DNA of 64,000 nucleotides. Origin: Escherichia phage AidaStucki_Bas93. The position numbers and the translations under genes are program-made. Where the stretch lies: the sequence record PQ850593.1. One strand, 5' to 3'. Below are positions 33,262 to 55,612 of the stretch, in pieces (the stretch's first letter is position 1; every line of letters begins with the position of its first letter). Under the pieces are notes generated by a model. That model did not search any database. It was given only the letters and a program-made list of their open reading frames with translations, and was not told where the DNA came from.

Positions 33262-33681
33262 TGTTAATTTCCTTATTTAATTTGAAAGATTGTTGCTCTC
33301 TTTGAGCGGTTATGTATAATATACATTACGCTTATACCGATAAGAGTACTATATAATATAAGTATCTTTGGTAGTAGATATAACACACTAGTAATGTATA
33401 TATTGTATAGCTGATAAAGTTATTGCAGGCTTGTACATTGGGCAATTCATAGAATCCCTTGCAAGTACCGAAGGGCAGGAGCCACCTGCGAGATAAAAAT
33501 AGAGAATTAAGGAATCCTTGATTTAGGTTGTAGGGACTCCTAGGGACTTTGATTCTCTATTTAAAAGAATAAATAATTACTATATCTAATACTAAACAGA
33601 CTGAAACAAAGATAAGAAACTTCTTATAAATACTCATTACTTATCATCTAAATAGTTAACTAATCTCTGATATAAAGAAGT
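33262..33681. promoter_or_regulatory. 420-bp AT-rich non-coding region with promoter-like motifs on both strands
   Basis: TAATGTATA cores at about 33310-33328 (minus sense, upstream of SSB) and 33390-33405 (plus sense); direct repeat tagggact x2. Confidence 0.4.
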
Positions 33682-33870
33682 TTAAATCAAGCATCCATCA
33701 CAAACATAGTCTCCACTAAGAGACTCTTGTAACAAACGATTTTGTTCCTCTGAATATAGAGAATTTACTAATTCTTTTAACTCTGAAAGAGTGATGAAAT
33801 CAATAGTATTTCCATTATCTAAAATAGAAGAGTTAAGTAAATATTCATTGTCTTTAATTTTATTAATCAT
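33682..33870 (-). CDS. hypothetical protein
   Basis: 62-aa ORF. Confidence 0.35.
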   Translation of the reverse strand: MINKIKDNEYLLNSSILDNGNTIDFITLSELKELVNSLYSEEQNRLLQESLSGDYVCDGCLI

Positions 33871-34037
33871 TCTTCATTTCCTTTTACTTCAGCGTAGACT
33901 TTGATAATGCCCTTAAGAACTTCCTTAGAAGCAATAGCACTTTCTTCAGAGGTGTGAATAGTAGAAAACTCTTTCTTTCCAATCTTGTAAGTGTGAACCC
34001 AAATCATACTTATTCCTCGTATTCCCAATTTCTTTCA
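33867..34037 (-). CDS. hypothetical small protein (56 aa)
   Basis: hand-translated; stop overlaps the next start (ATGA). Confidence 0.25.
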
Positions 34038-34167
34038 TAATATCCAGAGTTATAATTTAGAGCGCATCTCTCAGCCTCCTCTATGTCATCAGTGTTTAGG
34101 ATATTTACCCACCCACCAACTTCATCAAAACCTTCTTCTACTTCATTAAACCATACGCTATACTTTT

Positions 34168-34560
34168 TCATCGAATCACCAAAGGCTCTTCAGAGTACAC
34201 AGGAGCGGCTATTTCTACAGGAGGTGCTGCCCTAAGGTCATTAAGTCTTACGCCCTTCAGCATTCCATCTAGGTGGTCCTTTTTGGGTATTCCAACAGGG
34301 AAGTCGTCAATCCAGATATCTACAAAGAAACCTAACTGGCGACATACGTCATCTTTCTGAACACCATTGCAAAAGATGATAGGAATCTGCAAACGCTCTG
34401 CATCAATCTTAATGTCGTGATTATCATACCCATTAGGCTCTGCAAAGCGGTAAGTTACAAAACGTACATCATAACCTTTGGCTTGCATTAATGCCACCAC
34501 AGATCGCCACAGCTCTTTATCTGAGGTGTAAGTATCATCGTAATCTAAACCAATATTCAT
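34168..34560 (-). CDS. HAD-like phosphatase (possible 5'-nucleotidase)
   Basis: N-terminal GLDYDDT (DxDxT) and downstream DD motif. Confidence 0.45.
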   Translation of the reverse strand: MNIGLDYDDTYTSDKELWRSVVALMQAKGYDVRFVTYRFAEPNGYDNHDIKIDAERLQIPIIFCNGVQKDDVCRQLGFFVDIWIDDFPVGIPKKDHLDGMLKGVRLNDLRAAPPVEIAAPVYSEEPLVIR

Positions 34561-34798
34561 GTTGAATCCTTTTAGACAAGAAAAGCCGCCCTAAGGCAGC
34601 TTCTTATTTAACTATTCACTTTAGCTTCAAGTGTTTCATTTTCAATACTCAAGTCAATCACTACGCCAGTAAGCTCAACGACTGCTTGGCGAAGGGCGTC
34701 TTTACCCATAGAATGTACTTGAGATAAGAAGAAAGCTTTACCTTCTTCCGTGGATAGGGTTTCTTTTAATTCAGAAGCAGTCATTGATATTCCTTATT

Positions 34799-34990
34799 TT
34801 ACATTGTATAAATTCGCATGATTGTACCACCATCAGCTTCAATAGTAGAAACAACTTCATCTCGTTCTTCATCCGTGTACACTAGTACACTTTTAAACGA
34901 GCCAGTCACATCTGTGTACAAAATGTTGTACTTGGGAGGTGGTTTACGGTAAATACCTTCCATCATTCTTTCTCCTCTCGTTCTTTCCAC
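34799..34990 (-). CDS. hypothetical protein
   Basis: 63-aa ORF. Confidence 0.35.
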   Translation of the reverse strand: MERTRGERMMEGIYRKPPPKYNILYTDVTGSFKSVLVYTDEERDEVVSTIEADGGTIMRIYTM

Positions 34991-35160
34991 AGTTCAGCAA
35001 GCTCTAGGTAGAACTCAGCTTCATCAGGACGTCCTTGTTCATTACAGATGGCGCTTTGACGATAACACCAATCCGATGGCATCTCTTCCACTTCAATCTC
35101 CTTGTTATGAACTAATCAATAAGACTAGTTCATTTGTATTTCAATCTTTCAGTTCTGAAT

Positions 35161-35654
35161 TTAGTGTGTATGCATCCAATTTAACCCAATCTGACAATCA
35201 GAAGCCAGAGGACATTCCATGTTCAAGTACTCACCAGCCTTCTTAACACAAAGCTCGGTGTACTCTTTGAGTTTCTGTACATCATTACGGTTCACTGAGA
35301 ACTGGCCCTCATCGTGCATATCAATTACCTTAGCACAACGAACTCCATCTTTCTCAATCCACTTGTTAAGGAACATCATAGCATATTTCATAACAACAGC
35401 ACCAGCACATTGCAGGAGTGTGTTAAGGGCTTTATGAACCATAACCTTACCAGTGGCATCCCGTCTCATTGTAATCTTACGACCATCAACGCCAATCAAA
35501 TACCCTTGAGCAGCTTTCTCTGTCATACGATCAATGAGGATTGCAATACATGGGTTCTCTGCCAAGAAGCGTGCTCGCATCACTGAACCTTCGTCAGCTC
35601 CACCACCTACGATTGAACCAAGTTTAGCATCACCAGCACCATAGTTAAACGCAT
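35161..35654 (-). CDS. DNA polymerase (family A, T7 gp5-like), exon 2
   Basis: frame reads ...YGAGDAKLGSIVGG ... ALNTLLQCAG ... VIDMHDEGQF, matching motif B end through motif C; the frame is open upstream of the track's GTG start. Confidence 0.75.
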
Positions 35655-36360
35655 CTCATATATTCGACAAGAGCCGCAACACTCTCGCCCGTTCTCTTAT
35701 GAACTGCTACATGTCGCCATGTAGGATAGACTATATCATCACCCTCTATCGAGGGGTTGGGCGCTTCCACCGGCATTAGCTTCCGGCGTACTCCTTTCGG
35801 ATAGTCGTTGCACCTTCAAGTATTCTATAGCTGTTTCTAATCGGCTAACATCATCTTTCAATAGCCCTAAAGCTCTGTTGCAGTTGTGACACAACAGACC
35901 GCGTATTACTCCGGATTCATGGCAATGATCAACCACAAGTTTAATTCTGTGATGTGTTGCCATTACAAACCCTTCGCCCTTACAGATAGCACACTTCCCA
36001 TCCTGATCAGCGTACATCTTTTCGTAATCGCTGGCTGTGATTCCATAAATTCGTTTGAAGTAGGAATTTCTCCAGCCCCTATCTTTGCATTCATCAGAGC
36101 AATAATGTTCAGATGGTGCATTTGGTTGAAAATCTTTTGAGCAATTACGACAAGGTTTTGGATTGAACCGACCTTGAGGGTATTTACTTGCCTCAGCAGT
36201 CTGTTCTTCTTTAGTTTTAGTTACAGTTGTATATTCCATAAGCACCTCCATGTTGAGTTGCTATAGAATACTTGCTTGGCTCAGGATTGTCTACTAGAGA
36301 GTTTCCCTGAGTTCACCCAATTTAATCGACGAGATTACTCTCGAAGTATCCATTTACGTC
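35655..36360 (-). mobile_element. putative group I intron in the DNA polymerase gene
   Basis: 706 nt between exon 1 ending on a U (first base of the in-frame TGA) and exon 2 beginning after a G; joining gives RDNAKTFI-Y-AFNYGAGD, a continuous motif B. Confidence 0.55.
35739..36251 (-). CDS. intron-encoded HNH homing endonuclease
   Basis: 170 aa with HNH/Endo-VII-like CAICKG ... DHCHESG ... CHNCN motif, located inside the polymerase interruption. Confidence 0.7.
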   Translation of the reverse strand: MEVLMEYTTVTKTKEEQTAEASKYPQGRFNPKPCRNCSKDFQPNAPSEHYCSDECKDRGWRNSYFKRIYGITASDYEKMYADQDGKCAICKGEGFVMATHHRIKLVVDHCHESGVIRGLLCHNCNRALGLLKDDVSRLETAIEYLKVQRLSERSTPEANAGGSAQPLDRG

Positions 36361-37711
36361 AGATAAACGTTTTAGCGTTGTCACGAGTAGGAAGACCAGC
36401 AAGTTTCTGGTTGTGGGAGTGGATATCACCTTCAAGAAGGATATCACGATACATAATAGCAGAAGCTAAACCACGTTCTGCCAGAGCTTTCTTAGCTGGA
36501 TTATTCTCTTCGATTGCTTCAGCAAGCATATCCCTACACTCTTTAATGAGGTAGTGAGCGAGCATACGAAGTTCAAGTCCAGAACCATCATACCCTAAGA
36601 ATACTTCTTTACCAGCGGGTATGTAATATTTGTAAGCACCTACAGGCTTATCTTTCTTCCCCGGCTTACCTTTCTCGTAAATTACGTTAGTACCTTTTCG
36701 TATATAACAACCATCAGGAACAACGTTAGTAATAACGAAAGGACGAGAGTGATCACTGTCTGAATTATAGTCAGACTCAAACAAACTGCGACACTCATGA
36801 CCAAACAAACCACGAGAGGGAATATTAACCACGATACGATGTTTGAATCGAAAAGTTGGCGTAGCGCAGCTGTTAGCTTCTGCCGAAAGTTTACCATCTT
36901 CGCGTTCCTTTGCTATGAGTCCACTGATAAGACCTAGCCTGTGAGCCGCTACAACGCGCCTCTTAAGCAAACTTCCAACACTCCCTAGCTCGCCCCCTAA
37001 CCCTTCTTCAAGAGTCTCCTCGAGGTTTGTAGGAGCTGTAGGCCACTTGTTTGAGGTAGCTAGTGCTATCTTAATCTCATCAAACGTGATAGGTCTACGT
37101 CGGTTAGGGTTTAAACCTAAACCAAACACATAAGCCTTCATATAGTTCTTAGTCTTAAACCTAAAATGCTTCTCTAAGAACCTCCTAATATCTGCGTCAA
37201 CCATCTCGGCTGTCTGCTTCTGTTTAGCATTACCTCGCATCCAAGCTGAATACCACGCTTGGTATGTTCCATACTTTCGTATATCTTTCTTGATTTCAAA
37301 AGTATTCCAAGGTTTCTTTGATACGTTAAACTCTGGAGGAAGAAAACCCTCATCCATAAGGGCTTCTTTAACTCGTGCATCTTTCGATGGGTCAAAGTCC
37401 ACGTATTCAACACAGGTGAATGCTCCACCAATGTCTTCTCTCTTAAGGCCAACTCTATCACAATAGGCTTGAGGCCACTTCTGTAAAGCTCCAGACTTCT
37501 TAAATGGCTTCATATAAGTAGAGCCATCTAATCTCATCTTAGGTAAGAGAGGGATCAGTTCTTTGTCGATATTAACAATAATCTCTTTAAGGAGGTGAAC
37601 ATACCACCGAGCATTTCTTCGGTTGAAACTCACTCCGTGCTTCGCTTGCTTAGAGATTATATCAGCGACAGTCATCTCTGTCAAAAATGGGAGAGCGTCC
37701 GGGTTGCTCAC
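36361..37711 (-). CDS. DNA polymerase (family A, T7 gp5-like), exon 1
   Basis: YDGSGLELRMLAHY (motif A) and ...LPTRDNAKTFI (start of motif B); colinear with the T7 gp5 polymerase domain but lacks the N-terminal exonuclease domain. Confidence 0.8.
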
Positions 37712-37727
37712 TTTATACTCCTTTAAA

Positions 37728-38150
37728 TTATTGGTAAAGTAAATCTGTAAATGCTTGGTTGTCTTCTACTACATCTAACAAGGTTGCTTCGTTACTATAA
37801 GACCTAACCGTCCCGTTGACAACTGTCCGAGTAGGAGAGGGAGGTGGTGTATGGTTAGCCCTAGCTTCGCGAGGTTGCTCTCGTACTAAATGAGCCATAG
37901 CCATTTGGTTAGCGACTTCTTCTCTTTCTCGAATAGCTCTCTGAATATAAGCTAGCTTCATGCCCCAAGCTTCTTCAAATTCTTGAGGATGTTTGTCACT
38001 GATAACCACATATTGACGTTCAGGGATACCAGAGCGAATCTCTGATAAGAGTTCACAGAACAAATCCAGTTCGTGTTCAGTGAGATTCATTTCGATATCA
38101 TCCCACTTGAGAACTAGGAAACGGTTTTGATATCTAGTCGGTAATGACAT
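37728..38150 (-). CDS. hypothetical protein
   Basis: 140-aa ORF. Confidence 0.4.
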   Translation of the reverse strand: MSLPTRYQNRFLVLKWDDIEMNLTEHELDLFCELLSEIRSGIPERQYVVISDKHPQEFEEAWGMKLAYIQRAIREREEVANQMAMAHLVREQPREARANHTPPPSPTRTVVNGTVRSYSNEATLLDVVEDNQAFTDLLYQ

Positions 38151-38153
38151 AGC

Positions 38154-38408
38154 TTAACCTTTAGGGAATGGGATGAGGTTTTCTACTGCAACACGGAATT
38201 CTTTCTCTACATCTTTATTCTTATAAGAAATGAATTTCCCATCAGTACCACGGAGGATTACGTTAGTGCGAGCTGTTTTTGGGTTATGACTGATTTGGTT
38301 TGCAATGAGACTAATGTTGAGTTTAGTGTTGTGGTTATTGGTGAATTTCCACTTAGCCAGACGATTAGTCATTACATCAATGATAGTTACAGTTTTTACA
38401 ATAGACAT
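38154..38408 (-). CDS. hypothetical protein
   Basis: 84-aa ORF. Confidence 0.4.
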   Translation of the reverse strand: MSIVKTVTIIDVMTNRLAKWKFTNNHNTKLNISLIANQISHNPKTARTNVILRGTDGKFISYKNKDVEKEFRVAVENLIPFPKG

Positions 38409-38443
38409 AGTTATTACCTAAGAAGTTTAGTTTGGTTTATATA

Positions 38444-38471
38444 AAAGAAAAGGCCACCCATTTGGGTAGCC
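38444..38471 (-). terminator. rho-independent terminator
   Basis: minus-strand GGCTACCC-AAAT-GGGTGGCC hairpin followed by TTTTCTTTT. Confidence 0.5.
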
Positions 38472-38476
38472 TCATA

Positions 38477-38794
38477 TTACGATGAGCTTAAAGCTCCTTT
38501 GCGTGCTCCAGCTGCCTTCCCAGTTCGATCTCCACTTTTGCCGCCAGCTGAACGATTTCCGCTGACTGTTTCAACACGTAAGTTGCTTGACGCATTAGAG
38601 CCTCCTGACTTGATAGCTCGTTTGTGTCCAACGTCTTTACCTCTGACAGCAGCTTTTCCATCGCGCTTTTCAACGATGCGACGTGCACGGTGGCGCTGAG
38701 CATCTCCGCTCTTGCTACCAATTCCCGTTTCACCCCTTGCGATGGCGGTACGTCTTTCTTGTGCATAATCTCTCTTTCCTACATGGTCTGCCAT
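38477..38794 (-). CDS. basic Gly/Lys/Arg-rich protein
   Basis: AAGGAG RBS 7 nt upstream of ATG; a 92-aa alternative-frame ORF (38488..38766) overlaps and cannot be excluded. Confidence 0.4.
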   Translation of the reverse strand: MADHVGKRDYAQERRTAIARGETGIGSKSGDAQRHRARRIVEKRDGKAAVRGKDVGHKRAIKSGGSNASSNLRVETVSGNRSAGGKSGDRTGKAAGARKGALSSS

Positions 38795-38829
38795 TTAGAA
38801 CTCCTTAATATATCAGTGTACACTAAGGA

Positions 38830-38841
38830 GTATACATTATG
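38830..38841 (-). promoter_or_regulatory. candidate phage promoter motif (minus sense CATAATGTATAC)
   Basis: TAATGTATA core about 40 nt upstream of the 38794 start. Confidence 0.35.
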
Positions 38842-38848
38842 AATGATG

Positions 38849-39094
38849 TTAAAACTCTGCTAAGTATTTAATATCAGAGGCATATACCTCATCAAAGGAA
38901 ATAACTTCTCCATTGTAAAGAAGTTCTATCTTCAATATACCAGAGCATTTGGTGTCTTTAGAATCAACCCTGATAGAGAGCTTATCAACTATCTGAGCTT
39001 TAATCTCTTCTATCATTAACTCTTGAGTGTTATTCACTCCACCCTCCCGGTGGTACAAAATCATCAGGAACGTCAATGATAGTAGGTTCTCCAT
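38849..39094 (-). CDS. hypothetical protein
   Basis: 81-aa ORF; 5' end overlaps the upstream ORF, true start uncertain. Confidence 0.3.
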   Translation of the reverse strand: MENLLSLTFLMILYHREGGVNNTQELMIEEIKAQIVDKLSIRVDSKDTKCSGILKIELLYNGEVISFDEVYASDIKYLAEF

Positions 39095-39215
39095 TATTCA
39101 TGCAGGTGTCTTCATTGAACTCTTCACACTCAAAGCATGCTCGTTCGATATTTTTGTAGAAGTCGATGGTTGCTGAACCATCACCACAATCTCGGATAAC
39201 TAGAGCTACTTTCAT
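39030..39215 (-). CDS. hypothetical Cys-containing small protein
   Basis: 61-aa ORF. Confidence 0.3.
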   Translation of the reverse strand: MKVALVIRDCGDGSATIDFYKNIERACFECEEFNEDTCMNNGEPTIIDVPDDFVPPGGWSE

Positions 39216-39955
39216 TTCTCTTGTCCTTTTTCCATTGCTTTAACAATAGCTTTACAGAAACCAGAACGAACAATGTCATCTGATTCACCATCTACAATCT
39301 CAGCGAACTCATACAGATCATGTTCATCAATAAAGTTAGTAGCCCAAGTAAGACCACTCTCACGACCACGCATGTCATGCTGGTTAGTATCACCCATGCA
39401 GAACAGTTGAGAGGTTTCTCCCAATCGAGTCATGATTGAGAAGGCTTCATCTTTAGTGGTGTTCTGGAATTCATCAACAATAACAACAGCATCATTGAAA
39501 GAACGACCACGGAGATATTCCAGAGGTACGAACTCAATATTACTGTTACCAAGCTGGCATTCATAGAACCCCTTACCATATCGCTGAGTAATAACATCGA
39601 TGATAGGCATCAGGTATGGTTCAAACTTCTCACGCATCCCTCCCGGAAGTAACCCAAGAGAGTTGCCCATACCAACTGAAGGACGGCTAAGAATGATCTT
39701 CTGAATCTTACCACTCTTCAGAGCATCGATAACTGTAGAAGTGATTACATAGGTCTTACCACAGCCCGCAGGAGCGTCTGTGAACACCACTTGTTTAGTC
39801 TTGATAGCATTGAGTAGCTCAGATTGAAACTGATTCTGAGGAACCACTGGCTTCGCTAAAACAACCTCTTCATACTCACGCTTACCTTTCTTAGTGACCA
39901 AGGCTTCACGACGTAAATCTTTACGAGATTCTCTACGGGACTGTCTACGGCTCAT
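39212..39955 (-). CDS. phoH: PhoH-like ATPase
   Basis: Walker A DAPAGCGKTY and conserved PhoH core. Confidence 0.8.
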   Translation of the reverse strand: MSRRQSRRESRKDLRREALVTKKGKREYEEVVLAKPVVPQNQFQSELLNAIKTKQVVFTDAPAGCGKTYVITSTVIDALKSGKIQKIILSRPSVGMGNSLGLLPGGMREKFEPYLMPIIDVITQRYGKGFYECQLGNSNIEFVPLEYLRGRSFNDAVVIVDEFQNTTKDEAFSIMTRLGETSQLFCMGDTNQHDMRGRESGLTWATNFIDEHDLYEFAEIVDGESDDIVRSGFCKAIVKAMEKGQEK

Positions 39956-40137
39956 TTGCGCTCTCCTAGCTCTTCGTAATTAAATACAGAGGTTCGACAA
40001 TCTTTACATGTTGTTGTATAGACTCGAACATTAATGTACTTCTTGTTCTTCCCTTTGGTTGGAGAGCCTTTAGCAAGCTCTCTGATAACCTTGTTACTTG
40101 AGTGAAGGTTTGTGCCTTCGCATTTAGAGCACTTCAC
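39952..40137 (-). CDS. zinc-ribbon small protein
   Basis: CxxC ... CxxC arrangement, 61 aa. Confidence 0.4.
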   Translation of the reverse strand: MKCSKCEGTNLHSSNKVIRELAKGSPTKGKNKKYINVRVYTTTCKDCRTSVFNYEELGERK

Positions 40138-40358
40138 TCAGGCTCACCAACAGTAACTTCCCATACAACTTGAGAGATGATATTGTTGATCTGTTTGATT
40201 TGCTCGTAAGTCAGTTGCATACCTTTCATCTTCCGAGAGGCATTGCTTCGTGCTCTTCGCTGACGGTAGAAGTTATTCTTTTTAGTAGAGTGTAATCTAC
40301 TCATTTCACAAGCTCCACTTCTTCAATACTGTACCCTTCAAAATACTCACCATCTTGA

Positions 40359-40715
40359 TCATACTGGTTGATTGCTCTTGTTAGTACCCACACTTTCATT
40401 ATTCTTCTCTTTATGAAGTCTATAAACAGCTGTCGCCATGCAAGCAACAGCTTCATTGTGTGGGAGATGCATCCCTGTAGAACCATCCCAATCTTTGAAC
40501 TCATTGTCAAAGACTCCGGTAGGCTCTGGATACAGAGCTTGCAGCTCAACCAAATCATTAGCAACTTGTTGCCATTTATCATCAGACCAGATAGGGTCAT
40601 CCAACCAGTAATACAAATAGGAATGGATGATTAATTGCCTTCTGTGCCGATTAATTACTTCAGCGGGACTTATCTCACTTCCATTTGAAGTCCTAAATGT
40701 ATTACTGTCAATCAT
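40359..40715 (-). CDS. hypothetical protein (weak resemblance to NAD-ligase domain Ia)
   Basis: HSYLYYWLDDPIWSDDKWQQ ... ELQALYPE pattern; too short for a ligase, so resemblance is tentative. Confidence 0.35.
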   Translation of the reverse strand: MIDSNTFRTSNGSEISPAEVINRHRRQLIIHSYLYYWLDDPIWSDDKWQQVANDLVELQALYPEPTGVFDNEFKDWDGSTGMHLPHNEAVACMATAVYRLHKEKNNESVGTNKSNQPV

Positions 40716-40717
40716 GA

Positions 40718-41374
40718 TTAATTATTCCAAGTAGTTGATAAGGCTTTCCAAGAGATAGGATAAAGTTTCTTCATTTCTTCATCAATAGTTTGTGCAAACA
40801 GTCGGACCTCATACTGAGCGTGCTCTGACAGACGTTGACGGCACACATCTGACCAGCCATATAGAGAGCCAGTCCACACCCACTCAGTGATCATCCCCTG
40901 AGGAAGAACAAATCGAGCTTGCTCTGGTGCAACAAATTCAATCAACTTATCATATGCTGCTAGAGAGGATTCATATGCATCGTTAATCAGCATTAATGCT
41001 TCAGCTCGTTCTCCATCGATGAGTTGAATCCCTGAACCTGCATGGAGGTCCGAAGGTCTCGCAAAAATCTCTTTAGGGATGAAGACTTCAACTGCTCCAT
41101 CTTTATACCGACGGGACATTTCGTTCCACGAGAATCCAACCTGATGCTTGCCCAGCTGTCTCGCAATTGCGATAGGTGCTTTGCATCGGAAACTGACTTG
41201 TGGGTGTCGGAATGGAGTAACATGCTTTTCTCTTGCGAGGAAGTTGATGAGACGTTCATCACGTTCATTTAAATCACCTTCACGGGTTACGCCAAAGGAA
41301 ACTCGAGCTGCGTTTACTACGCTACGATCACTTCCCATAGCTTCGATTAATGTTGCTTGTAGTTGTTCATTCAT
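40718..41374 (-). CDS. thyX: flavin-dependent thymidylate synthase ThyX
   Basis: ThyX signature region ...ARQLGKHQVGFSWNEMSRRY. Confidence 0.75.
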   Translation of the reverse strand: MNEQLQATLIEAMGSDRSVVNAARVSFGVTREGDLNERDERLINFLAREKHVTPFRHPQVSFRCKAPIAIARQLGKHQVGFSWNEMSRRYKDGAVEVFIPKEIFARPSDLHAGSGIQLIDGERAEALMLINDAYESSLAAYDKLIEFVAPEQARFVLPQGMITEWVWTGSLYGWSDVCRQRLSEHAQYEVRLFAQTIDEEMKKLYPISWKALSTTWNN

Positions 41375-41389
41375 CCGTGAATATCCTTA

Positions 41390-41665
41390 TTATTTATTGC
41401 TCAGTGCTGTGTCCAAAAATGCTTTCAGGTTTGCTTCAGTCTGCATACCAGAGAGGCTGTAATGTGCGCCACTATTCCGGTCAGGCACAACGAAAGCAGG
41501 AATGCTTCGTACACCATACTTAACAGCTTGTTCACGACCGTCACCCTCAAGGATATTAATCTCTTCCACTTCTACATCGAACTCCTTAACAACCTTCTCA
41601 AAGATAGGAGCCATTGCTTTACATGGAGCACACTGATCACTATAAAACTTAATTACTTTAGACAT
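41390..41665 (-). CDS. thioredoxin/glutaredoxin-like protein
   Basis: 91 aa with CAPC redox motif near the N-terminus. Confidence 0.6.
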   Translation of the reverse strand: MSKVIKFYSDQCAPCKAMAPIFEKVVKEFDVEVEEINILEGDGREQAVKYGVRSIPAFVVPDRNSGAHYSLSGMQTEANLKAFLDTALSNK

Positions 41666-41673
41666 GTAAATCC

Positions 41674-49994: not shown

Positions 49995-52025
49995 TTAACC
50001 TCTATTCAATGAACATTTAGGAGAATTACAATAAACTTGATTCATAGAACCAAGCGTACAACTTTCAGCATCGCGCCACGGAATCTGCTTAAAACACCCT
50101 GAGCAGTAGCCGAGGGTTGACCACATTGCTTTGGTGAAGTCAGTGCTTCGATTTCCGTCGAAGCTGACAACAGTTTTGCGGAGAGCTGTTCGTGATTCAG
50201 GAAACACACCTGCTTTCTCAGCAGGTTCCTCCTTTTTTGGCTTAGTTGAGATTGCAAAAATACTGTTGCTACGTTTCTCAACATAAGCATCAACAACATC
50301 CTCCAGAGTAATGCCTGTCTGTTTCGCTGAGGAAGGTAATACAGTCATACGACCAATCATATCTTCAGTTACACGTAAAGCAAATTCAGGACGACGGGCG
50401 TTTGTTGTATCTGTTGCTTTAATCCAGACATAACCATCTTTGATCGTAGCATTAGATACTTTCTTCTTTATATCTACAGCGCAGACTTTACAGATGTCTT
50501 CACCACGAAGACGACTGAGTTCATCATCAAACTCGTTCTCTGTTTTAACTTCACCACAGATTTCACAAACACCAATAGGAGTTTCCTCCTCTTCTTCATC
50601 TTTAGGCTTAGTCAAACCTTCCAGACATTCAGGGTGCCAGTAGCATTGATATGCGAAGACTGCTTTAGGTGCATCCTTCCAATCAATGTGTTTATCACAA
50701 CCGCCACAATCACCATGAGAATGTGCTTCCCAGAATTTACGAGTGATAGTAACGCCATTCTTGTTGACGAAACTATCATTCATATCAAAAGGGATATCAT
50801 CATCAAAGTCAGCAGTAGTTGACTCAGGCTCCTTTTTCTCCAGAGATGGGTCAACAAAACGACCTGCTGTGATCACTAAACGAACCATAGCATTAACTTC
50901 GGAGATACAGGATACTGTCCCACGGTAAACAATTTTAGGGTCTTTCAGGGCATCCTGATAAGCCTTAATGTCTACGTTATGAACATCACCTTCGATATAC
51001 TCTTGAGATTTCTCATCGTAGATATAACCAATCATCTTACCACGAGAAGGAACAGCACCAGCAGTTGCATAAGGGACAAACTCATGTGGTGTGATCTCCA
51101 CAGTCATGTCGCGGCGAATGTCAATGTTTCGATCGCTTGCGATTTTGTTTTGACTTACCACTGCGTTTCTTCGACGAACGTCTGCCGCTGTCACTCCCGG
51201 CTTCGTGTCGTAAGGATTGCTTGTACTGCTTTTTGAGGAACTTTGATAGTTGCTTTGGCTGTAGTTGTTCGAGTAGTAATTGCCCCAACGATTGATTACC
51301 GTAAAAACCGGAAGCTCGTGGGCGACCTCTTCAACTAGAGTCATGCTGTTGTTTGACACATCAAAGATGTATTCTGTACCAACTTTACATTCAAAGTGCT
51401 CATCAATGCGATTCTTGTGAGACCTAGAACGCTTCAGAATCCACATCAACATATCTTCTTCAGAAGCACCAAACCAATCTCTGTTACAACGTGCAAGATG
51501 GAAAGGACGCTCTTCATTACGGATGATATGAAGACGATTATCAGAAGCATCGTGCCAGATTAAGGTGAAAGCACCATCCAGCTTTTGAATAGTCTCTGCT
51601 GCACCAATAGTGTTAATAGAGTGGCAGATGTTTTCACTGTCTACCTCGAAGTTTTTACTGTCAGGTAACAGGTCTTGGTTCATCAAGGTTCCGTTATGAA
51701 CCAGAGTGATGTTACCGTGTTGGAAAGGATGGGCGTTCTTGGCGTTAACTGCACCTTTCGTTGCATGACGGCTGTGACCAACAATCCATGAAGGTGCTAC
51801 AGTGTAAGCTGTTTCACCAGTGGTGTGCTTCTTGTACTCATCTTTAAGGATGAATGCGAAAGAAGGAAGTGCCTCTTTATAAGTGAAGACCTCTTTAGTG
51901 CTTTTACGCTGACCAAAGATACCAGAGGAGTGCTGTCCTCGGAATACTCCAGCATAAAAGAGTTGGTTAAATATATCTAAATCAGTGCTTGACAGATTAC
52001 CGCCAGCTAATACGATGCCACAAAT
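49995..52025 (-). CDS. class-II (Ntn) glutamine amidotransferase domain fused to a Cys-rich C-terminal region; apparent non-AUG start
   Basis: frame is open upstream of the track's TTG start back to a TAG at 52029-52031 and begins K-I-CGIVLAGG (catalytic N-terminal Cys); AGGTGG sits 8 nt upstream of the ATT preceding the Cys codon. Confidence 0.5.
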   Translation of the reverse strand: MCGIVLAGGNLSSTDLDIFNQLFYAGVFRGQHSSGIFGQRKSTKEVFTYKEALPSFAFILKDEYKKHTTGETAYTVAPSWIVGHSRHATKGAVNAKNAHPFQHGNITLVHNGTLMNQDLLPDSKNFEVDSENICHSINTIGAAETIQKLDGAFTLIWHDASDNRLHIIRNEERPFHLARCNRDWFGASEEDMLMWILKRSRSHKNRIDEHFECKVGTEYIFDVSNNSMTLVEEVAHELPVFTVINRWGNYYSNNYSQSNYQSSSKSSTSNPYDTKPGVTAADVRRRNAVVSQNKIASDRNIDIRRDMTVEITPHEFVPYATAGAVPSRGKMIGYIYDEKSQEYIEGDVHNVDIKAYQDALKDPKIVYRGTVSCISEVNAMVRLVITAGRFVDPSLEKKEPESTTADFDDDIPFDMNDSFVNKNGVTITRKFWEAHSHGDCGGCDKHIDWKDAPKAVFAYQCYWHPECLEGLTKPKDEEEEETPIGVCEICGEVKTENEFDDELSRLRGEDICKVCAVDIKKKVSNATIKDGYVWIKATDTTNARRPEFALRVTEDMIGRMTVLPSSAKQTGITLEDVVDAYVEKRSNSIFAISTKPKKEEPAEKAGVFPESRTALRKTVVSFDGNRSTDFTKAMWSTLGYCSGCFKQIPWRDAESCTLGSMNQVYCNSPKCSLNRG

Positions 52026-52104
52026 TTTCTAATCCACCTGAAGGGTAAACCCTTTCATCTAATTAACCTTTAAATTATGCCCCTTCGTCAGAGGCACCCA
52101 TTGA

Positions 52105-53208
52105 TTACAGCGCTTGCTCTAACTGATTTTCCAGATGATCTGGAATATATCCTGTGATGTTGTTATCACTGTGTCCTGACTCACGTAGCAAGTCAAAAAT
52201 AGCACGGATACGCTGTTCTGATGCAGATCGTACAGTAGATAGGTCAGTTGTACGAAGCATAACCAGAATTTCTTGGTACAAGTTGTTAGCGTTCCCTCGA
52301 ATATACCCAAGGAACCCATAGAAGTCTGGAATAAGACGTAAGTCAACAAGGACTTCTCCGTTGGAGTCGGTTCGACGTAAACGAATACGACCAGACTGCT
52401 CTACTTCATGAGAACGACAATACAAAACATCACGGGCCATACAATACCCTGAATGCAAATCCGATTCGTCCAGATTGTAATCCAGAGGAAGATAAGGAAG
52501 CATTGGGGCAAATCGTACAGTATTTAAATGCTCAATAAACTGGTCATTGCTCATCTCTGCGTTATCTAAAGCCAGCTTCTTCAACATTAAGAAGCGGTTA
52601 ACCAGATTGAGAAGTTGACCACGTTTCCACTTAGGCTCGCTGATACGAAACTCAATTGAGCCGTATTGGGCAAGTGGCAGAAGGTTCAGAGATGTATACT
52701 TATCCCATGAACGAACCAGACGGTTGAAGAACTCTTCACCGTCGTAGTTAAATGCGTCAGAGGCGTTCATTACCTGTGCTTGTACCACTGCGAAAGCAGG
52801 GCAGAAGTTGCTACGGTAACGATGATAGCCTGAACACTTGAACAACATTTTTTCATAGAAGGTCCAAGCGAGGATGGTTTTCTTGAGGATATTACTATCA
52901 GCATCCCTCATATCCATATGAACGTGAGTAGAGCAACGCCAAGTCCCCTCGGCGTGCGATTCAGCTACTGCTTCACTCAGGTTGTTGATAGCGTCTAACA
53001 ACTCCTGTCCATTGTAAGGTCGTGAACATACCATTTCACAACCATTACGCAGGGAACCATCCTCTGTACAATCCCACATATCTGCTTCAATATGGTCGGA
53101 ACCTTCGAGTTCTAGTTCGATACCGATACCGCACTGAAGTGCAATTGAACTATGCGCCTCAGTTAAACGACCTTCTCGGTATCCAAAAGTTTGCGCTACA
53201 GTTGTCAT
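52105..53208 (-). CDS. candidate GS-like amidoligase
   Basis: GIGIELELEG near N-terminus and CSTHVHMD downstream; assignment needs profile search. Confidence 0.4.
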   Translation of the reverse strand: MTTVAQTFGYREGRLTEAHSSIALQCGIGIELELEGSDHIEADMWDCTEDGSLRNGCEMVCSRPYNGQELLDAINNLSEAVAESHAEGTWRCSTHVHMDMRDADSNILKKTILAWTFYEKMLFKCSGYHRYRSNFCPAFAVVQAQVMNASDAFNYDGEEFFNRLVRSWDKYTSLNLLPLAQYGSIEFRISEPKWKRGQLLNLVNRFLMLKKLALDNAEMSNDQFIEHLNTVRFAPMLPYLPLDYNLDESDLHSGYCMARDVLYCRSHEVEQSGRIRLRRTDSNGEVLVDLRLIPDFYGFLGYIRGNANNLYQEILVMLRTTDLSTVRSASEQRIRAIFDLLRESGHSDNNITGYIPDHLENQLEQAL

Positions 53209-53822
53209 AACGAATCCACCAACGTAATATTATAATTGCTAAGATTTTCAGAGATGTGATGAAAATGTTCCAGAAGTCGCATCGGTTGCTGACCATAAGA
53301 GTCACGAGGTGCTTCTAGATCTACTTGTCCTACCAGTGCACCTTTATAATGCACTTTACCATCTGTAGGATTGATGTAAATGTAACGAGTGACCAATCCA
53401 TCAAACTCTGGATTGAACAAACTGTAAACCATCTCCCCAGAGATAGAACGACCAATCCCAGGAGCATTTCGAATCTTATTACCCATTAAACCCTTTGCTC
53501 TCTGACGAACAGGGTTAATATGAGTCCAGCTCACAGTGTTACCGTTATGGAACAGATAACCAACATCAGGTGATTCAAGAATCAAGGTTGGGTCGAACAC
53601 TGGAATATTCATCACAGTGTTTCGAAGATTCCCATGCTCGTTCTTGTACCACTGCTCTACAACAAAATACAGAGCCTGCTCTGCTTCGTGAGAGAAGTCA
53701 TCGCTGCGGAAGTTACCGCTCTGCTCAACACCAATCACAAAACATGGAAGGTTGATATTACCTGCTCGTTTAGCAATCCATGTACCGTTATAGTAATGAG
53801 AAAAATCAGATACTAAGCTCAC
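53205..53822 (-). CDS. hypothetical protein
   Basis: 205-aa ORF overlapping neighbours by 4 nt (operon-like). Confidence 0.4.
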   Translation of the reverse strand: MSLVSDFSHYYNGTWIAKRAGNINLPCFVIGVEQSGNFRSDDFSHEAEQALYFVVEQWYKNEHGNLRNTVMNIPVFDPTLILESPDVGYLFHNGNTVSWTHINPVRQRAKGLMGNKIRNAPGIGRSISGEMVYSLFNPEFDGLVTRYIYINPTDGKVHYKGALVGQVDLEAPRDSYGQQPMRLLEHFHHISENLSNYNITLVDSL

Positions 53823-53831
53823 GATAACCTC

Positions 53832-54638
53832 TTATGCTACCTGAAGGCGTTTAATCTGCTGGTCCGCTTCTTTAACGTTATTACCGTTAATGATTTCATG
53901 AAGCTTCTCAATCGGAAGGCGAGAGTGCAATGCCATCAGAGTGGACATGTCACACTGCTGAACAACCTTGTCAACCTGATCATAAACAAACTTACGGTTT
54001 TCACGATCACTAATCCAGAAGTTAGACAGGGAACGATATTCAATACCATAGTCCTTGTAGCGGATTGCAGATGCTTTACCGTAGAGTTCTTTACGGCGAG
54101 TGTCTTTATCCATAATAACTGCTGGGAGGGATAGGAAGTAGTCACACAGCACACCCAGCATCATCTGAGTTTGCAGGGTGATATCCAAAGCACCAACTAC
54201 GCCAAGATGTACGTGACCACCGGCAGTACGAAGCCCCTTATTTTGAGAAGTCGGGGATGGGTTCTTCTGACCAGTGAAAGCGTTGAAATCAGGAGTACAT
54301 CCAAAGATGAACGCTGATTCATTGAAAGTCTTCATCTCTTCTTCAGTGAAGATGTGAGAGCTAACACCCGGAGCTGTTTCCATGTCCAGTTTGTTCAGGA
54401 CATTATTGGTGAGATCGATACCACGTTGCATGTTGTCATTAAACGCTTCAAAACCACTCTGTGGGTCAATATCAAACTCAGCCAGTACGTTGTCCTCTTG
54501 AAGACGAACATCCTTAGCCAGAGCGATCTTATCGTCCTTAGAACAACCTAACAGACCAGCTACAGAAGTGATGATTCCTTTGCTGGTACGAACGAACATT
54601 TCCGGATCCGATCCTATTAAGAATTTGCGCTTAGTCAT
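53832..54638 (-). CDS. hypothetical protein (second candidate GS-like amidoligase)
   Basis: FLIGSDPEMFV near N-terminus and AGGHVHLGV downstream; tentative. Confidence 0.35.
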   Translation of the reverse strand: MTKRKFLIGSDPEMFVRTSKGIITSVAGLLGCSKDDKIALAKDVRLQEDNVLAEFDIDPQSGFEAFNDNMQRGIDLTNNVLNKLDMETAPGVSSHIFTEEEMKTFNESAFIFGCTPDFNAFTGQKNPSPTSQNKGLRTAGGHVHLGVVGALDITLQTQMMLGVLCDYFLSLPAVIMDKDTRRKELYGKASAIRYKDYGIEYRSLSNFWISDRENRKFVYDQVDKVVQQCDMSTLMALHSRLPIEKLHEIINGNNVKEADQQIKRLQVA

Positions 54639-55602
54639 TGTAATACTCCACTAGTTCAGAAAAGAGAGATGAGATTGTGTTACCGATTTCTTCAGGATTA
54701 AGACCAGAATCTATTCCAGTACGCTGAATTATTCGTGCTGTAAAGTTTTGTACTGTAATGTTTTCCAACTTATTATCTATTGCTTCACGTTTGTGACCAT
54801 AACAGTTGGACCAGAGTTTTAACCACTCTGACATTGTTTCATACTCATCTGGATCTTGATCTTTAGCACGAGCAAATCTTCGTAAGACATCTGTGTTGTG
54901 GTTACGAACATAACCATTCTCGTTGTCACCAACACCGAAGGGGTTTTGAACCCATACTTGCTTCGTGTATTCATCAGAGTCAACAACCAAAGGAAGGAAT
55001 GCTGCTGCTGACATATTGTTGTCAATAACAACAGACGTGCTTTCACTACTCCCATTGGAAGCTCCTCGTTGAGACCACCTACCAAAGAAGTCACGACCCA
55101 ACCCAGCTAACAACAGAGCGATGCCAATGCGTTTACGCTTCAGCCACTCTTCCCTGTCTTCAATTCCTTCTGCTAGGAAATCCATTCCACGATACTGCCC
55201 TTCCAAAATGCTACGGAAGAGCATAAGTCCTGTGAAGATTTGATCTGCTGGATGCTCACGGAGGTTGACAGCTACGCTATTCGCTGAAGTGATTGTGAAT
55301 ACATCGCGATAGCAAGACATGGAGTTCATAATATCTGCTGTTTCAACCAAGTTCTTTTCAATATAAGATGCATCATGACCGTGAAAAGAGTGAGTCCAGT
55401 AATTCAGCATCTCCAGTTGCAAGTTGATATCACGGTTGAAGCGTCTATAACGCCCCTCTTCCATGATAACTTCGCCATTAATATCGCTTACACATTGGCC
55501 TTGCATGTAGTTGTGAATACCGAAGCACCCACGACCTAAGAACTTCTGTTCCCCTAAATCTTGTTGAAGATTCAGAGGTACGATCGTTGTGGAGATTGAC
55601 AT
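54631..55602 (-). CDS. hypothetical protein
   Basis: 323-aa ORF with no motif I recognise. Confidence 0.4.
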   Translation of the reverse strand: MSISTTIVPLNLQQDLGEQKFLGRGCFGIHNYMQGQCVSDINGEVIMEEGRYRRFNRDINLQLEMLNYWTHSFHGHDASYIEKNLVETADIMNSMSCYRDVFTITSANSVAVNLREHPADQIFTGLMLFRSILEGQYRGMDFLAEGIEDREEWLKRKRIGIALLLAGLGRDFFGRWSQRGASNGSSESTSVVIDNNMSAAAFLPLVVDSDEYTKQVWVQNPFGVGDNENGYVRNHNTDVLRRFARAKDQDPDEYETMSEWLKLWSNCYGHKREAIDNKLENITVQNFTARIIQRTGIDSGLNPEEIGNTISSLFSELVEYYND

Positions 55603-55612
55603 AACTAACCTT

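Follow-up and report, generated by a model that had tools for sequence, protein, structure and literature searches.

Gene content of the locus

The stretch of DNA analyzed here (the window, 64,000 nucleotides of sequence record PQ850593.1, Escherichia phage AidaStucki_Bas93) belongs to a phiEco32-like podophage (Kuravirus) that is ~99% identical to the BASEL phages Bas92 and Bas94. Its minus strand carries a gene for a small thioredoxin-like protein (Table 1), with the gene for the thymidylate synthase ThyX directly downstream after a gap of 15 bp. A short hydrophobic ORF ends 8 bp before the start codon of the thioredoxin gene, and the two genes are probably co-transcribed. Further neighbors encode a Dps-like protein, whose family alignment shows invariant H, H, D, and E residues at what we take to be the Dps ferroxidase site; a protein like phiEco32 gp68; dCTP deaminase; the exonuclease subunit of a split DNA polymerase; and a primase-helicase whose acidic C-terminal tail ends, in translation, with Trp. 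Searches of the window by phmmer and tblastn with seven ribonucleotide reductase (RNR) queries found no RNR, in line with the original prediction, and the annotation of the complete genome of phage Bas92, to which the window is ~99% identical, lists none. That annotation likewise contains no peroxiredoxin or other thioredoxin-dependent peroxidase.

Table 1. Positions of the features discussed, in window coordinates
Feature	Coordinates	Strand	Basis
DNA polymerase, family A, whole locus including intron	35161..37711	-	Best sequence and structure match, T7 gp5
DNA polymerase exon 2: fingers and C-terminal part of palm	35161..35652	-	blastn against Bas92 polymerase gene, 99.6% identity
Group I intron, 704 bp	35653..36356	-	Rfam RF00028, E=2.1e-9, 43.9 bits (gathering score of 50 not reached); insertion relative to Bas92
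HNH/EndoVII-type homing endonuclease ORF inside intron	35739..36251	-	ORF
DNA polymerase exon 1: thumb, motif A of palm, beginning of O helix	36357..37711	-	blastn against uninterrupted Bas92 polymerase gene; phmmer against PDB
Thumb-tip insertion, polymerase residues 58-105, ~49 aa by alignment boundaries	37397..37540	-	Translation; HMMER, MAFFT, and HHalign against T7 gp5
ThyX, flavin-dependent thymidylate synthase	40718..41374	-	Pfam Thy1 PF02511, E=8.9e-44; NCBIfam thyX, 127 bits (cut-off 87.9)
Thioredoxin gene, phiEco32 gp65 ortholog, 91 aa	41390..41665	-	ORF; Pfam PF00085; PHROG 22; AF2; Foldseek; phiEco32 and Bas92 annotation
Active-site codons C-A-P-C, residues 12-15	41621..41632	-	Translation
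Hydrophobic ORF, 59 aa	41674..41853	-	ORF; PHROG 9296 (function unknown); annotated in Bas92 and phiEco32
Dps-like ferritin-fold protein	41912..42475	-	Pfam Ferritin, E=3.2e-7; NCBIfam Dps, E=2.4e-8 (below cut-off); PHROG 3636; alignment
Conserved 109-aa protein, like phiEco32 gp68	42468..42797	-	PHROG 10984; synteny
dCTP deaminase, member of nucleotide-metabolism module	43080..43613	-	Pfam DCD, E=3.6e-34
3'-5' exonuclease subunit of split polymerase, separate gene	44872..45426	-	PHROG "DNA polymerase exonuclease subunit," E=2.9e-75; phiEco32 and Bas92 annotation
T7 gp4-type primase-helicase	45420..47210	-	Pfam DnaB_C, E=1e-10; translation

The phage protein is a thioredoxin with a shortened N terminus

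The ORF, whose translation begins MSKVIKFYSDQCAPCKAM, matches the Pfam thioredoxin family PF00085 (E=3.5e-13, 49.9 bits, cut-off 23.5) and PHROG 22, "thioredoxin domain." Its AlphaFold2 (AF2) model, at a pLDDT of 92, has a minimal β-α-β-α-β-β-α fold (strands at residues 3-8, 32-37, 57-61, and 68-72; helices at 13-27, 43-49, and 77-89), and the best structural match found for this model by Foldseek is Escherichia coli TrxA, with a TM score of ~0.8, a root mean square deviation of 1.7 Å, and ~30% identity. A thioredoxin-like gene with a CAPC motif beside thyX, as originally described, is therefore borne out by these family, fold, and gene-order data. The score against the NCBIfam thioredoxin equivalog TIGR01068 is below its cut-off (50.7 versus 96.8 bits), as is that against NCBIfam TrxA, and the Pfam Glutaredoxin match is also under threshold (E=0.008, 16.8 bits, cut-off 22.9).

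The phage protein shares with E. coli TrxA the fold, the CxPC motif, the cis-Pro loop, and equivalents of I60 and G92. It differs in lacking the N-terminal β1-α1 and an equivalent of W31: in the alignment it begins at about TrxA residue 22, so that the first ~20 residues are absent, G74 is replaced by Ser, and the buried D26 is replaced by Lys. Residues R53-S54-I55-P56 align with TrxA R73-G74-I75-P76, the cis-Pro loop that faces the active site, and by this alignment R53 and P56 are invariant among homologs. The active-site pentapeptide is noncanonical, QCAPC rather than WCGPC, and homologs have Q, S, or T in place of the Trp before CxxC. Among the closer homologs, C12, P14, and C15 do not vary; across the wider set the two cysteines remain invariant and P14 nearly so. 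The invariance of the two cysteines, the cis-Pro, R53, and G73 holds down to 31 to 41% identity, a range that takes in Kuravirus, phage 7-11, Privateer, and metagenomic relatives. Absence of the N terminus has been described as typical of a clade of phage thioredoxins (PHROG 22; Syn5 type), and the present protein fits that description in being ~20 residues short, in its CxPC motif, and in its location within a replication and nucleotide-metabolism cluster. It resembles the redoxins linked to RNR (T4 NrdC, NrdH, and glutaredoxins) as a small dithiol protein of thioredoxin fold in a nucleotide-metabolism context, but its motif is CAPC rather than CVQC, CPYC, or CVYC, it scores below the Glutaredoxin threshold, and no RNR gene was found adjacent to it or elsewhere in the window.

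By sequence, the gene is that of phiEco32 gp65, which has carried an annotation ("thiol-disulfide isomerase and thioredoxin") since 2008 and is hence already known; the product shares 98.9% amino acid identity with its phiEco32 counterpart and 100% with that of Bas92, and in both phages the position and neighbors of the gene are the same. SU10 CDS65, phage 7-11 gp079, and Privateer QIN94863 are orthologs. In SU10 the product has been detected by mass spectrometry with 52.8% coverage, and the same paper lists CDS65, 67, and 68 for all C3 phages. A role for the phage thioredoxin in polymerase processivity is not a new idea either, having been published for the phiEco32-like (C3) group in the 2021 Privateer paper, which also classes the protein under stress response. 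In the literature searched we found no experiments on gp65 and none on the need of Kuravirus for host trxA. Whether phage-encoded thioredoxins act as processivity factors is a modest question on which work is in progress, for instance in Syn5.

The polymerase is of the T7 clade and carries a shortened thumb-tip insertion

The recruitment of host thioredoxin by T7 DNA polymerase for processivity is a textbook case of host-factor use. The polymerase of the present phage belongs to the T7 clade, as the original prediction had proposed: in phmmer searches of the PDB it matches T7 gp5 with E=3e-33 and Klenow with 4e-6; HHalign aligns its residues 7-614 with T7 gp5 212-704 at a probability of 100%; and Foldseek gives E=2e-25 for T7 gp5 compared with ~1e-15 for Bst and other Pol I-type enzymes. 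The primase-helicase, gp4 type with an acidic tail, is a further likeness to T7. T7 polymerase has a fused 3'-5' exonuclease, whereas the phage polymerase has no exonuclease domain, the exonuclease being encoded ~7 kb away, and its gene is split by an intron after ...PTRDNAKTFI. Separate exonuclease and polymerase genes combined with a shortened thioredoxin-binding domain (TBD) are also found in the split T7-like PolAs with half-length TBD (cluster 5, S-SBP1-like; Czernecki et al. 2023). In S-SBP1, however, a frameshift gave rise to the two genes, which adjoin each other, unlike the widely separated genes of the present phage.

To compare the thumb regions, T7 gp5 and Klenow were added to the family alignment as polymerase domains alone, and HHalign was run in addition; a global MAFFT alignment with full-length T7 gp5 and Klenow was set aside because it misaligned the N terminus to the exonuclease domain. 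At the site of the T7 TBD (residues 262-338; ~76 residues between thumb helices H and H1), the phage polymerase has 49 aa by alignment, compared with 72 in T7, 3 in Klenow, and 30 in Syn5. The original prediction had called for aligning the thumb with T7 gp5 in search of a thioredoxin-binding insertion and had held that lack of the loop would count against it. Such an insertion is present at exactly this site between the thumb helices, and both flanking strands are kept (entry GSTYMKP versus GSWYQPK in T7; exit REDIGGAFTCVEYVDF versus REYVAGAPYTPVEHVVF in T7), although ~23 T7 loop residues are missing, including T7 ~263-280 and part of the basic loops. T99, on the exit side, aligns with T7 Thr327, which is reported to lie beside thioredoxin Cys32 in the T7 complex; the neighboring Glu319 of T7 gp5 is likewise said to be a suppressor site for trxA G74D. 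The AF2 model places a strand at residues 59-66, a short helix (a point of difference from the T7 TBD) at 78-87, and a strand at 98-104, with pLDDT values of 85 to 90, so that, as modeled, the insertion is ordered even on its own.

The insertion and the thioredoxin gene are distributed differently

The 49-aa insertion is also conserved in LUZ24-like phages. These share the polymerase, exonuclease, and helicase and are without the nucleotide-metabolism module; the complete LUZ24 genome yielded no thioredoxin. The insertion is likewise kept in Aeromonas phage BUCT695, in which the sole gene of thioredoxin fold in the 40 kb examined adjoins RNR. Comparable insertions of 22 to 46 aa are general among marine T7-like polymerases, as judged from a profile search with the polymerase alignment that returned mostly marine T7-like contigs and few close relatives. 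Because it is shared by LUZ24-like, BUCT695, and marine T7-like polymerases, the insertion is, on these alignments, a feature of the clade that is independent of the presence of a phage thioredoxin; LUZ24-like phages may nonetheless use the thioredoxin of their host.

Wherever the thioredoxin gene was present among the relatives examined, it lies in a block with dCTP deaminase, ThyX, PhoH, Dps, and NrdD genes, away from the polymerase gene; thioredoxin and this polymerase are found together in all enterobacterial C3 podophages. Each genome region examined has one redoxin of thioredoxin fold, either at this locus (Kuravirus, phage 7-11, Privateer, which has a T4-like NrdAB, and the relatives L091, L092, and L093) or directly beside class I RNR genes (BUCT695 and the relative L090). 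The gene for the gp68-like protein accompanies those for thioredoxin and the Dps-like protein in C3 podophages, as seen by synteny in phage 7-11, Privateer, and L091. ThyX adjoins thioredoxin in Kuravirus and L093 and is missing from the neighborhood in L091 and Privateer; in phage 7-11 and Privateer the neighbor is PhoH or dCTP deaminase rather than ThyX.

Two candidate associations were rejected on this distribution. ThyX uses NADPH and FAD, and a chemical link between it and thioredoxin was discarded since the adjacency is not kept in phage 7-11, Privateer, or L091. A general phage module of thioredoxin and Dps was also discarded: of 47 viral contigs with a Dps-like gene, 10 have a thioredoxin within 6 kb of it, and all 10 are related to this phage lineage, to which the adjacency is confined.

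Role of the phage thioredoxin

The original prediction had offered two roles, a dedicated processivity factor or a reductant. We consider it more likely that the protein is a redox enzyme in DNA-precursor supply than that it is a dedicated polymerase clamp. The usual account of such proteins as reductants for a phage RNR is not directly applicable because phiEco32-like phages are without RNR. We propose instead that gp65 would act as a cytoplasmic, redox-active thioredoxin without β1-α1, expressed alongside the replication and nucleotide-metabolism genes. Host thioredoxin reductase (TrxB) would regenerate the reduced CAPC dithiol, which in turn would reduce disulfides in enzymes that limit DNA-precursor supply. 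The chief target may be the host class Ia reductase NrdAB, proposed because the phage has no reductase of its own, and the resulting rise in dNTP flux would act alongside the phage dCTP deaminase and ThyX. Any thioredoxin on the polymerase thumb tip would, by analogy with Syn5, more probably be host TrxA. We regard this role in redox chemistry and dNTP supply as plausible, if still short of probable. In its favor, the fold and catalytic apparatus are present (PF00085, the AF2 fold, TrxA as the nearest structure, and the invariant residues), the protein is made in SU10, the gene sits in a nucleotide-metabolism block rather than beside the polymerase gene, and the single redoxin has a complementary placement, either at this locus or beside RNR. 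The polymerase and its insertion also occur in LUZ24-like phages, which do without the module, and in LUZ24 itself without a detected thioredoxin. A further argument comes from Syn5, whose thioredoxin (gp25) is likewise N-truncated, with CxPC, and encoded in the replication cluster of a phage whose T7-clade polymerase has only a short insertion in the thumb; it is redox active and raises genome replication, and experiments together with AlphaFold3 models favor host thioredoxin as the partner of the Syn5 polymerase, with the phage protein serving in redox chemistry. The two are likened by these features, and they differ in that Syn5 has its own class I RNR and a thioredoxin gene between the helicase and polymerase genes, whereas the present phage has no RNR and a thioredoxin gene ~3.7 kb from the polymerase gene and adjoining thyX. 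On the other side, E. coli TrxA, TrxC, and glutaredoxins already serve NrdAB, and with no phage RNR the gain from an extra reductant is not obvious. QCAPC in place of WCGPC, along with the NCBIfam score below cut-off, makes recognition by TrxB putative. T7 polymerase binds the active-site face of thioredoxin, and because the contacts are made to this same face, the conserved cysteines are compatible with polymerase binding too. As a reductant, the protein fits better than as a processivity factor, given the insertion in LUZ24-like phages, the invariant redox motif, and the Syn5 analogy. If it is a plain reductant, gp65 is an ordinary auxiliary metabolic gene.

Alternatively, gp65 might bind the shortened thumb-tip insertion of the split T7-clade polymerase and take the place of host TrxA in tethering the polymerase to primer-template, with no need of redox chemistry. 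The T7-clade polymerase, the conserved insertion exactly at the TBD site, the match of T99 to T7 T327, the T7-like helicase tail, acidic with an aromatic last residue, and the co-occurrence of thioredoxin and polymerase in enterobacterial C3 podophages all speak for this role, and the missing β1-α1 lies off the active-site face. Moreover, AlphaFold3 still docks a thioredoxin on the even shorter Syn5 insertion (30 aa); therefore, a short insertion can suffice. The docked protein, however, is not the phage one, which in Syn5 is predicted off the TBD, and AF2 did not dock host thioredoxin on the split T7-like polymerases with half-length TBD (Czernecki et al. 2023). Equal conservation of the insertion in LUZ24-like phages, its retention in BUCT695, and the general occurrence of comparable insertions in marine T7-like polymerases all separate it from the phage thioredoxin; it is predicted to fold alone, with part of the T7 basic loops missing; and the active-site cysteines, needless in a redox-independent clamp, are invariant. 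The thumb comparison is thus intermediate, with an insertion at the T7 site that is shorter than the T7 domain, and the processivity proposal itself we judge unlikely. A more specific form, which appears quite unlikely, is that gp65 is a self-supplied processivity subunit on a minimal hairpin of ~49 aa and that the conserved GGPF(T/S) hairpin is an ancestral thioredoxin dock of the T7-like clade, for which LUZ24-like phages would use host thioredoxin. Were the processivity role true, phiEco32-like phages would encode for themselves the factor that T7 takes from its host, a thioredoxin-binding element could be far smaller than that of T7, and a compact, self-contained processive polymerase could become available for biotechnology. 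In another alternative, thioredoxin and the Dps-like ferroxidase might jointly protect the replication compartment from oxidative damage, such as that caused by H2O2 from the flavoenzyme ThyX or by infection stress, and keep phage or host proteins reduced. The conserved trio of thioredoxin, gp68-like, and Dps-like genes in C3 podophages, the retained His, His, Asp, and Glu of the presumed ferroxidase site, the position next to thyX in Kuravirus and L093, and the stress-response classification in the Privateer paper are consistent with such protection, which nevertheless seems rather improbable: the adjacency to Dps is lineage confined and may be inherited synteny, ThyX is not in the neighborhood in L091 and Privateer, and the annotation has no thioredoxin-dependent peroxidase. 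Finally, by analogy, the phage thioredoxin could rewire host thiol-redox chemistry to the detriment of the host, for example by reducing MsrA, with no specific link to DNA synthesis. The redox-active Syn5 thioredoxin is reported to be toxic to its host, and a proteome-scale predictor paired one phage thioredoxin with host MsrA; such a takeover function would nonetheless be very unlikely for gp65, the gene for which lies in the middle (replication) block and not among the early host-takeover genes.

A bona fide phage thioredoxin

The gene under study in this phiEco32-like podophage (Kuravirus, Gordonclarkvirinae) is a real open reading frame (ORF), whose 91-aa product begins MSKVIKFYSDQCAPCKAM and carries CAPC at residues 12 to 15. 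The protein matches Pfam Thioredoxin (E=3.5e-13) and PHROG 22 ("thioredoxin domain"); its phiEco32 counterpart, gp65, bears the annotation "thiol-disulfide isomerase and thioredoxin" and the Bas92 one "thioredoxin domain." The stop of an upstream 59-aa ORF lies 8 bp before its start codon, with an AAGGA Shine-Dalgarno sequence between them, and ThyX starts 15 bp past its stop codon, a spacing that places the gene tightly packed within the middle, replication-class operon. An AlphaFold2 (AF2) model built from 15 homologs (pLDDT 92) has the minimal thioredoxin fold b-a-b-a-b-b-a, and among solved structures, E. coli TrxA and its mutants come closest (TM ∼0.8, rmsd 1.7 Å, ∼30% identity). Relative to TrxA, the phage protein lacks the first ∼20 residues (b1-a1), its active site reads QCAPC rather than WCGPC, the G74 position is Ser, and the buried D26 is Lys; it retains TrxA I60, a cis-Pro loop (as R53-S54-I55-P56), and G92 (as G73). 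Its score against the NCBIfam thioredoxin equivalog, 50.7 bits, falls below the cutoff of 96.8. No substitution of either cysteine, the cis-Pro, R53, or G73 occurs in a homolog alignment (31 to 77% identity to the window protein) that takes in phage 7-11, Privateer, metagenomic relatives, a BUCT695 redoxin, and E. coli TrxA.

This thioredoxin is found in 126 GenBank phage records, nearly all from enterobacterial C3-morphotype podophages (hosts include Escherichia, 92; Proteus, 8; Salmonella, 7; Cronobacter, 6; and Shigella, 3). In the phage SU10 paper, the protein was seen by mass spectrometry (52.8% coverage) and its gene was listed among those common to all sequenced C3 phages. We conclude that the gene encodes a bona fide, expressed, N-truncated thioredoxin, confirming the original prediction of a CAPC-bearing thioredoxin-like ORF beside ThyX.

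Features of the window and of one related contig
Feature	Position	Strand	Remarks
Thioredoxin	41390-41665	-	
DNA polymerase	35161-37711	-	Intron-split
Polymerase insertion (intron)	35653-36356	-	704 bp
HNH/EndoVII-type endonuclease ORF	35739-36251	-	Inside intron
TBD-site insertion	37397-37540	-	Polymerase residues 58-105
Large helical thumb insertion	∼37001-37333	-	Polymerase residues ∼127-237; not in T7 gp5, shorter in LUZ24-type enzymes
Beta-rich insertion before motif A	∼36602-36724	-	Polymerase residues ∼330-370
Helical insertion in fingers	∼36452-36544	-	Polymerase residues ∼390-420
Nlig-Ia protein	40359-40715	-	Stand-alone, 118 aa; only the N-terminal Ia (NAD+-binding) domain of NAD-dependent DNA ligase; Pfam Nlig-Ia, E=2.5e-35
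Dps-like ferritin-fold protein	41912-42475	-	H, H, D, E positions invariant
gp68-like conserved protein	42468-42797	-	109 aa
Nucleotidyltransferase-like ORF	43623-44927	-	434 aa; PHROG 12715
Exonuclease	44872-45426	-	
Primase-helicase	45420-47210	-	gp4-like
Helicase acidic tail	45420-45520	-	
Gamma-glutamyl cyclotransferase	47430-47849		Goes with amide-bond enzyme cluster
Peptide/amide-bond-forming enzyme cluster	48356-56809	-	ATP-grasp/RimK-like, glutamine amidotransferase, amidoligase, phiEco32-type COOH-NH2 ligase
Mini-thioredoxin, contig L092	7523-7735	+	70 aa; CGPC; AIPT cis-Pro loop; close downstream of dUTPase/DCD gene, near syntenic position

A putative shortened thioredoxin-binding domain in a T7-clade polymerase

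The polymerase gene is interrupted after the codons for ...PTRDNAKTFI, within the conserved TRDNAKTFIY (O-helix) motif, by an insertion whose match to the group I intron model (Rfam RF00028, E=2e-9), at 43.9 bits, does not reach the gathering score of 50; the insertion is present in Bas94 but not in Bas92 or LAMP. The uninterrupted protein has 614 aa. Its top PDB sequence match is T7 gp5 (E=3e-33, versus 4e-6 for Klenow), profile-profile alignment pairs residues 7 to 614 with T7 212 to 704 at 100% probability, and its AF2 model (pLDDT 90) matches T7 gp5 structures at E=2e-25 versus ∼1e-15 for Bst and other Pol I-type enzymes. By all three comparisons, the polymerase belongs to the T7 clade. 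Unlike T7 gp5, it lacks an exonuclease domain, which a separate gene encodes. The primase-helicase has a zinc finger at its N terminus and, at its C terminus, an acidic tail whose last residue is Trp. The label "T7-type replisome" is thus fair, the separate exonuclease and the intron-split polymerase being the differences.

In T7 gp5, the thioredoxin-binding domain (TBD) is located between thumb helix H and the FNPSS motif, an interval of 72 residues in T7, 49 in the window polymerase, and 3 in Klenow. HMMER, MAFFT, and HHalign placed the insertion at this site in the same register against T7 gp5. The entry strand, GSTYMKP, aligned to T7 GSWYQPK and the exit strand, REDIGGAFTCVEYVDFDPSK, to T7 REYVAGAPYTPVEHVVFNPSS, so that polymerase T99 stands opposite T7 T327, which we take to be the residue next to thioredoxin Cys32 in the T7 complex; nearby E319 is presumably a suppressor site for trxA G74D. 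The T7 loops are shortened by about 23 residues, in whose place the AF2 model has a short helix (residues 78 to 87); the whole element is predicted as ordered (pLDDT 85 to 90). Judged from these alignments, the polymerase appears to carry a shortened TBD homolog rather than no TBD, and the lack of a thioredoxin-binding loop that would have counted against the original prediction is not what we found.

The insertion is kept in 43 polymerases from this family, in which P57, G74, G96, F98, and F106 are invariant. LUZ24-type polymerases have an insertion of ∼47 aa at the same site, and marine T7-like polymerases have comparable ones (22 to 46 aa, with a similar PF(S/T) core); in cyanophage Syn5, the insertion measures 30 aa. 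The TBD-site insertion is thus a clade feature.

Placement of redoxins and the role of the thioredoxin

Of the 245 GenBank phage records with this type of polymerase thumb region, 105 belong to Pseudomonas (LUZ24-like), 11 to Aeromonas, and 3 to Vibrio phages; none of the 126 thioredoxin records comes from phages of these three genera. Neither an HMM search (E<=1) nor a scan for the CxxC...cis-Pro motif detected a Trx-fold ORF in the complete LUZ24 genome, from which the whole nucleotide-metabolism block is also missing. Wherever present in the relatives examined, thioredoxin sits within that block: the order is helicase, exo, dCTP deaminase, Trx, x, Dps in Privateer and contig L091; PhoH then Trx in phage 7-11; and Dps, Trx, ThyX in Kuravirus and contig L093. 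The mini-thioredoxin of the metagenomic relative L092 belongs to this series too; it is absent from the precomputed Pfam annotation, which implies that standard annotation under-calls thioredoxin in this phage group. In Aeromonas phage BUCT695 and contig L090, the sole Trx-fold gene of the region examined directly adjoins class I ribonucleotide reductase (RNR) genes. A single redoxin per genome region, located here or beside RNR, is the pattern expected of a hydrogen donor for deoxynucleotide synthesis.

We therefore tentatively favor, as the most likely role, a redox function in deoxynucleoside triphosphate supply. The thioredoxin would be recycled by host thioredoxin reductase, and its reducing equivalents would feed deoxynucleotide synthesis. 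As originally predicted, the window yielded no RNR, and the annotation of the complete Bas92 genome (∼99% identical) lists none either, so the target would be host NrdAB, with dCTP deaminase and ThyX of the phage working in parallel. This reading is weak on one point: E. coli has TrxA, TrxC, and glutaredoxins of its own, and it is hard to see why an extra thioredoxin would be kept after the loss, or lack, of a phage RNR. The closest analogue studied is the thioredoxin of T7-like cyanophage Syn5 (Tahan, Shitrit and Lindell, bioRxiv, 2026 version), which is redox active and raises genome replication; these authors report that most phage thioredoxins lack ∼20 N-terminal residues and keep CxPC, and they favor phage RNR as the protein reduced. 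In their AlphaFold3 predictions, host thioredoxins, not the phage one, are placed on the Syn5 polymerase despite its short insertion. A short insertion may therefore still bind thioredoxin, and by this analogy its partner would be the host's.

The puzzle of the extra thioredoxin keeps alive the alternative that the protein is a dedicated processivity factor of the polymerase, which we nevertheless consider unlikely. The insertion extends to LUZ24-type and marine T7-like enzymes, the polymerase type occurs in phage groups outside the thioredoxin list and in LUZ24 itself, and the thioredoxin gene lies among nucleotide-metabolism genes. The invariant redox residues, which a redox-independent clamp does not need, argue against it only moderately, since T7 polymerase binds the same face of thioredoxin. 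Corban and Ramsey (2021), who found thioredoxin kept in every C3 phage examined, explicitly hypothesized that it couples with the T7-like polymerase for better processivity, and Czernecki et al. (2023) described split exo/pol T7-like PolAs with the TBD shortened by half, on which AF2 did not dock host thioredoxin. Both the gene and this hypothesis were thus already in the literature; new in our analysis are a residue-level map of the putative half-length TBD homolog, the finding that this element extends past the phages that encode thioredoxin, and the observation that redoxins in relatives are placed in a complementary way. Still less probable is a role as antioxidant partner of the adjacent Dps-like protein, whose invariant residues presumably form the Dps ferroxidase site: thioredoxin lies within 6 kb of a Dps-like gene in 10 of 47 viral contigs with such a gene, and all 10 are relatives, so the adjacency is confined to this lineage and the reading lost support. 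Takeover of host redox by the phage thioredoxin seems the most improbable. Of the two functions first proposed, the reductant role is thus the likelier, and that of dedicated processivity factor is not established even with an apparent TBD homolog present; the original prediction is partly supported in its interpretation.

Neighboring genes and genome mosaicism

The thioredoxin, Dps-like, and gp68-like genes form a syntenic trio across C3 podophages. Relatives annotate the Nlig-Ia protein as "DNA ligase"; lacking adenylation and OB domains, it cannot be a complete ligase and might modulate host LigA. The exonuclease gene, ∼7 kb from the polymerase gene, overlaps the start of the nucleotidyltransferase-like ORF, which sits between it and the dCTP deaminase gene. 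With its terminal aromatic residue, the helicase tail is reminiscent of the one with which T7 gp4 docks on the basic loops of the T7 TBD; the window polymerase lacks most of these loops. Each of the three further insertions in this polymerase could, with no cofactor involved, influence how it binds DNA or how processive it is.

The region from 33500 to 48000 is mosaic relative to sequenced phages: 38000 to 48000 is nearest Escherichia phage JacquesWildberger_Bas92 (99.3% identity; 92.8% to phiEco32), and 33500 to 38200, including the intron, is nearest Bas94 (99.5%, full coverage). Among GenBank phages, the whole intron element is shared with Bas94 only; a 51-nt piece matches the gene 5 region of T7-like Yersinia phages (e.g., Berlin and Yepe2), and the polymerase genes of LUZ24 and BUCT695 are likewise interrupted by an endonuclease gene. 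The amide-bond enzyme cluster is kept from LUZ24 to Privateer.
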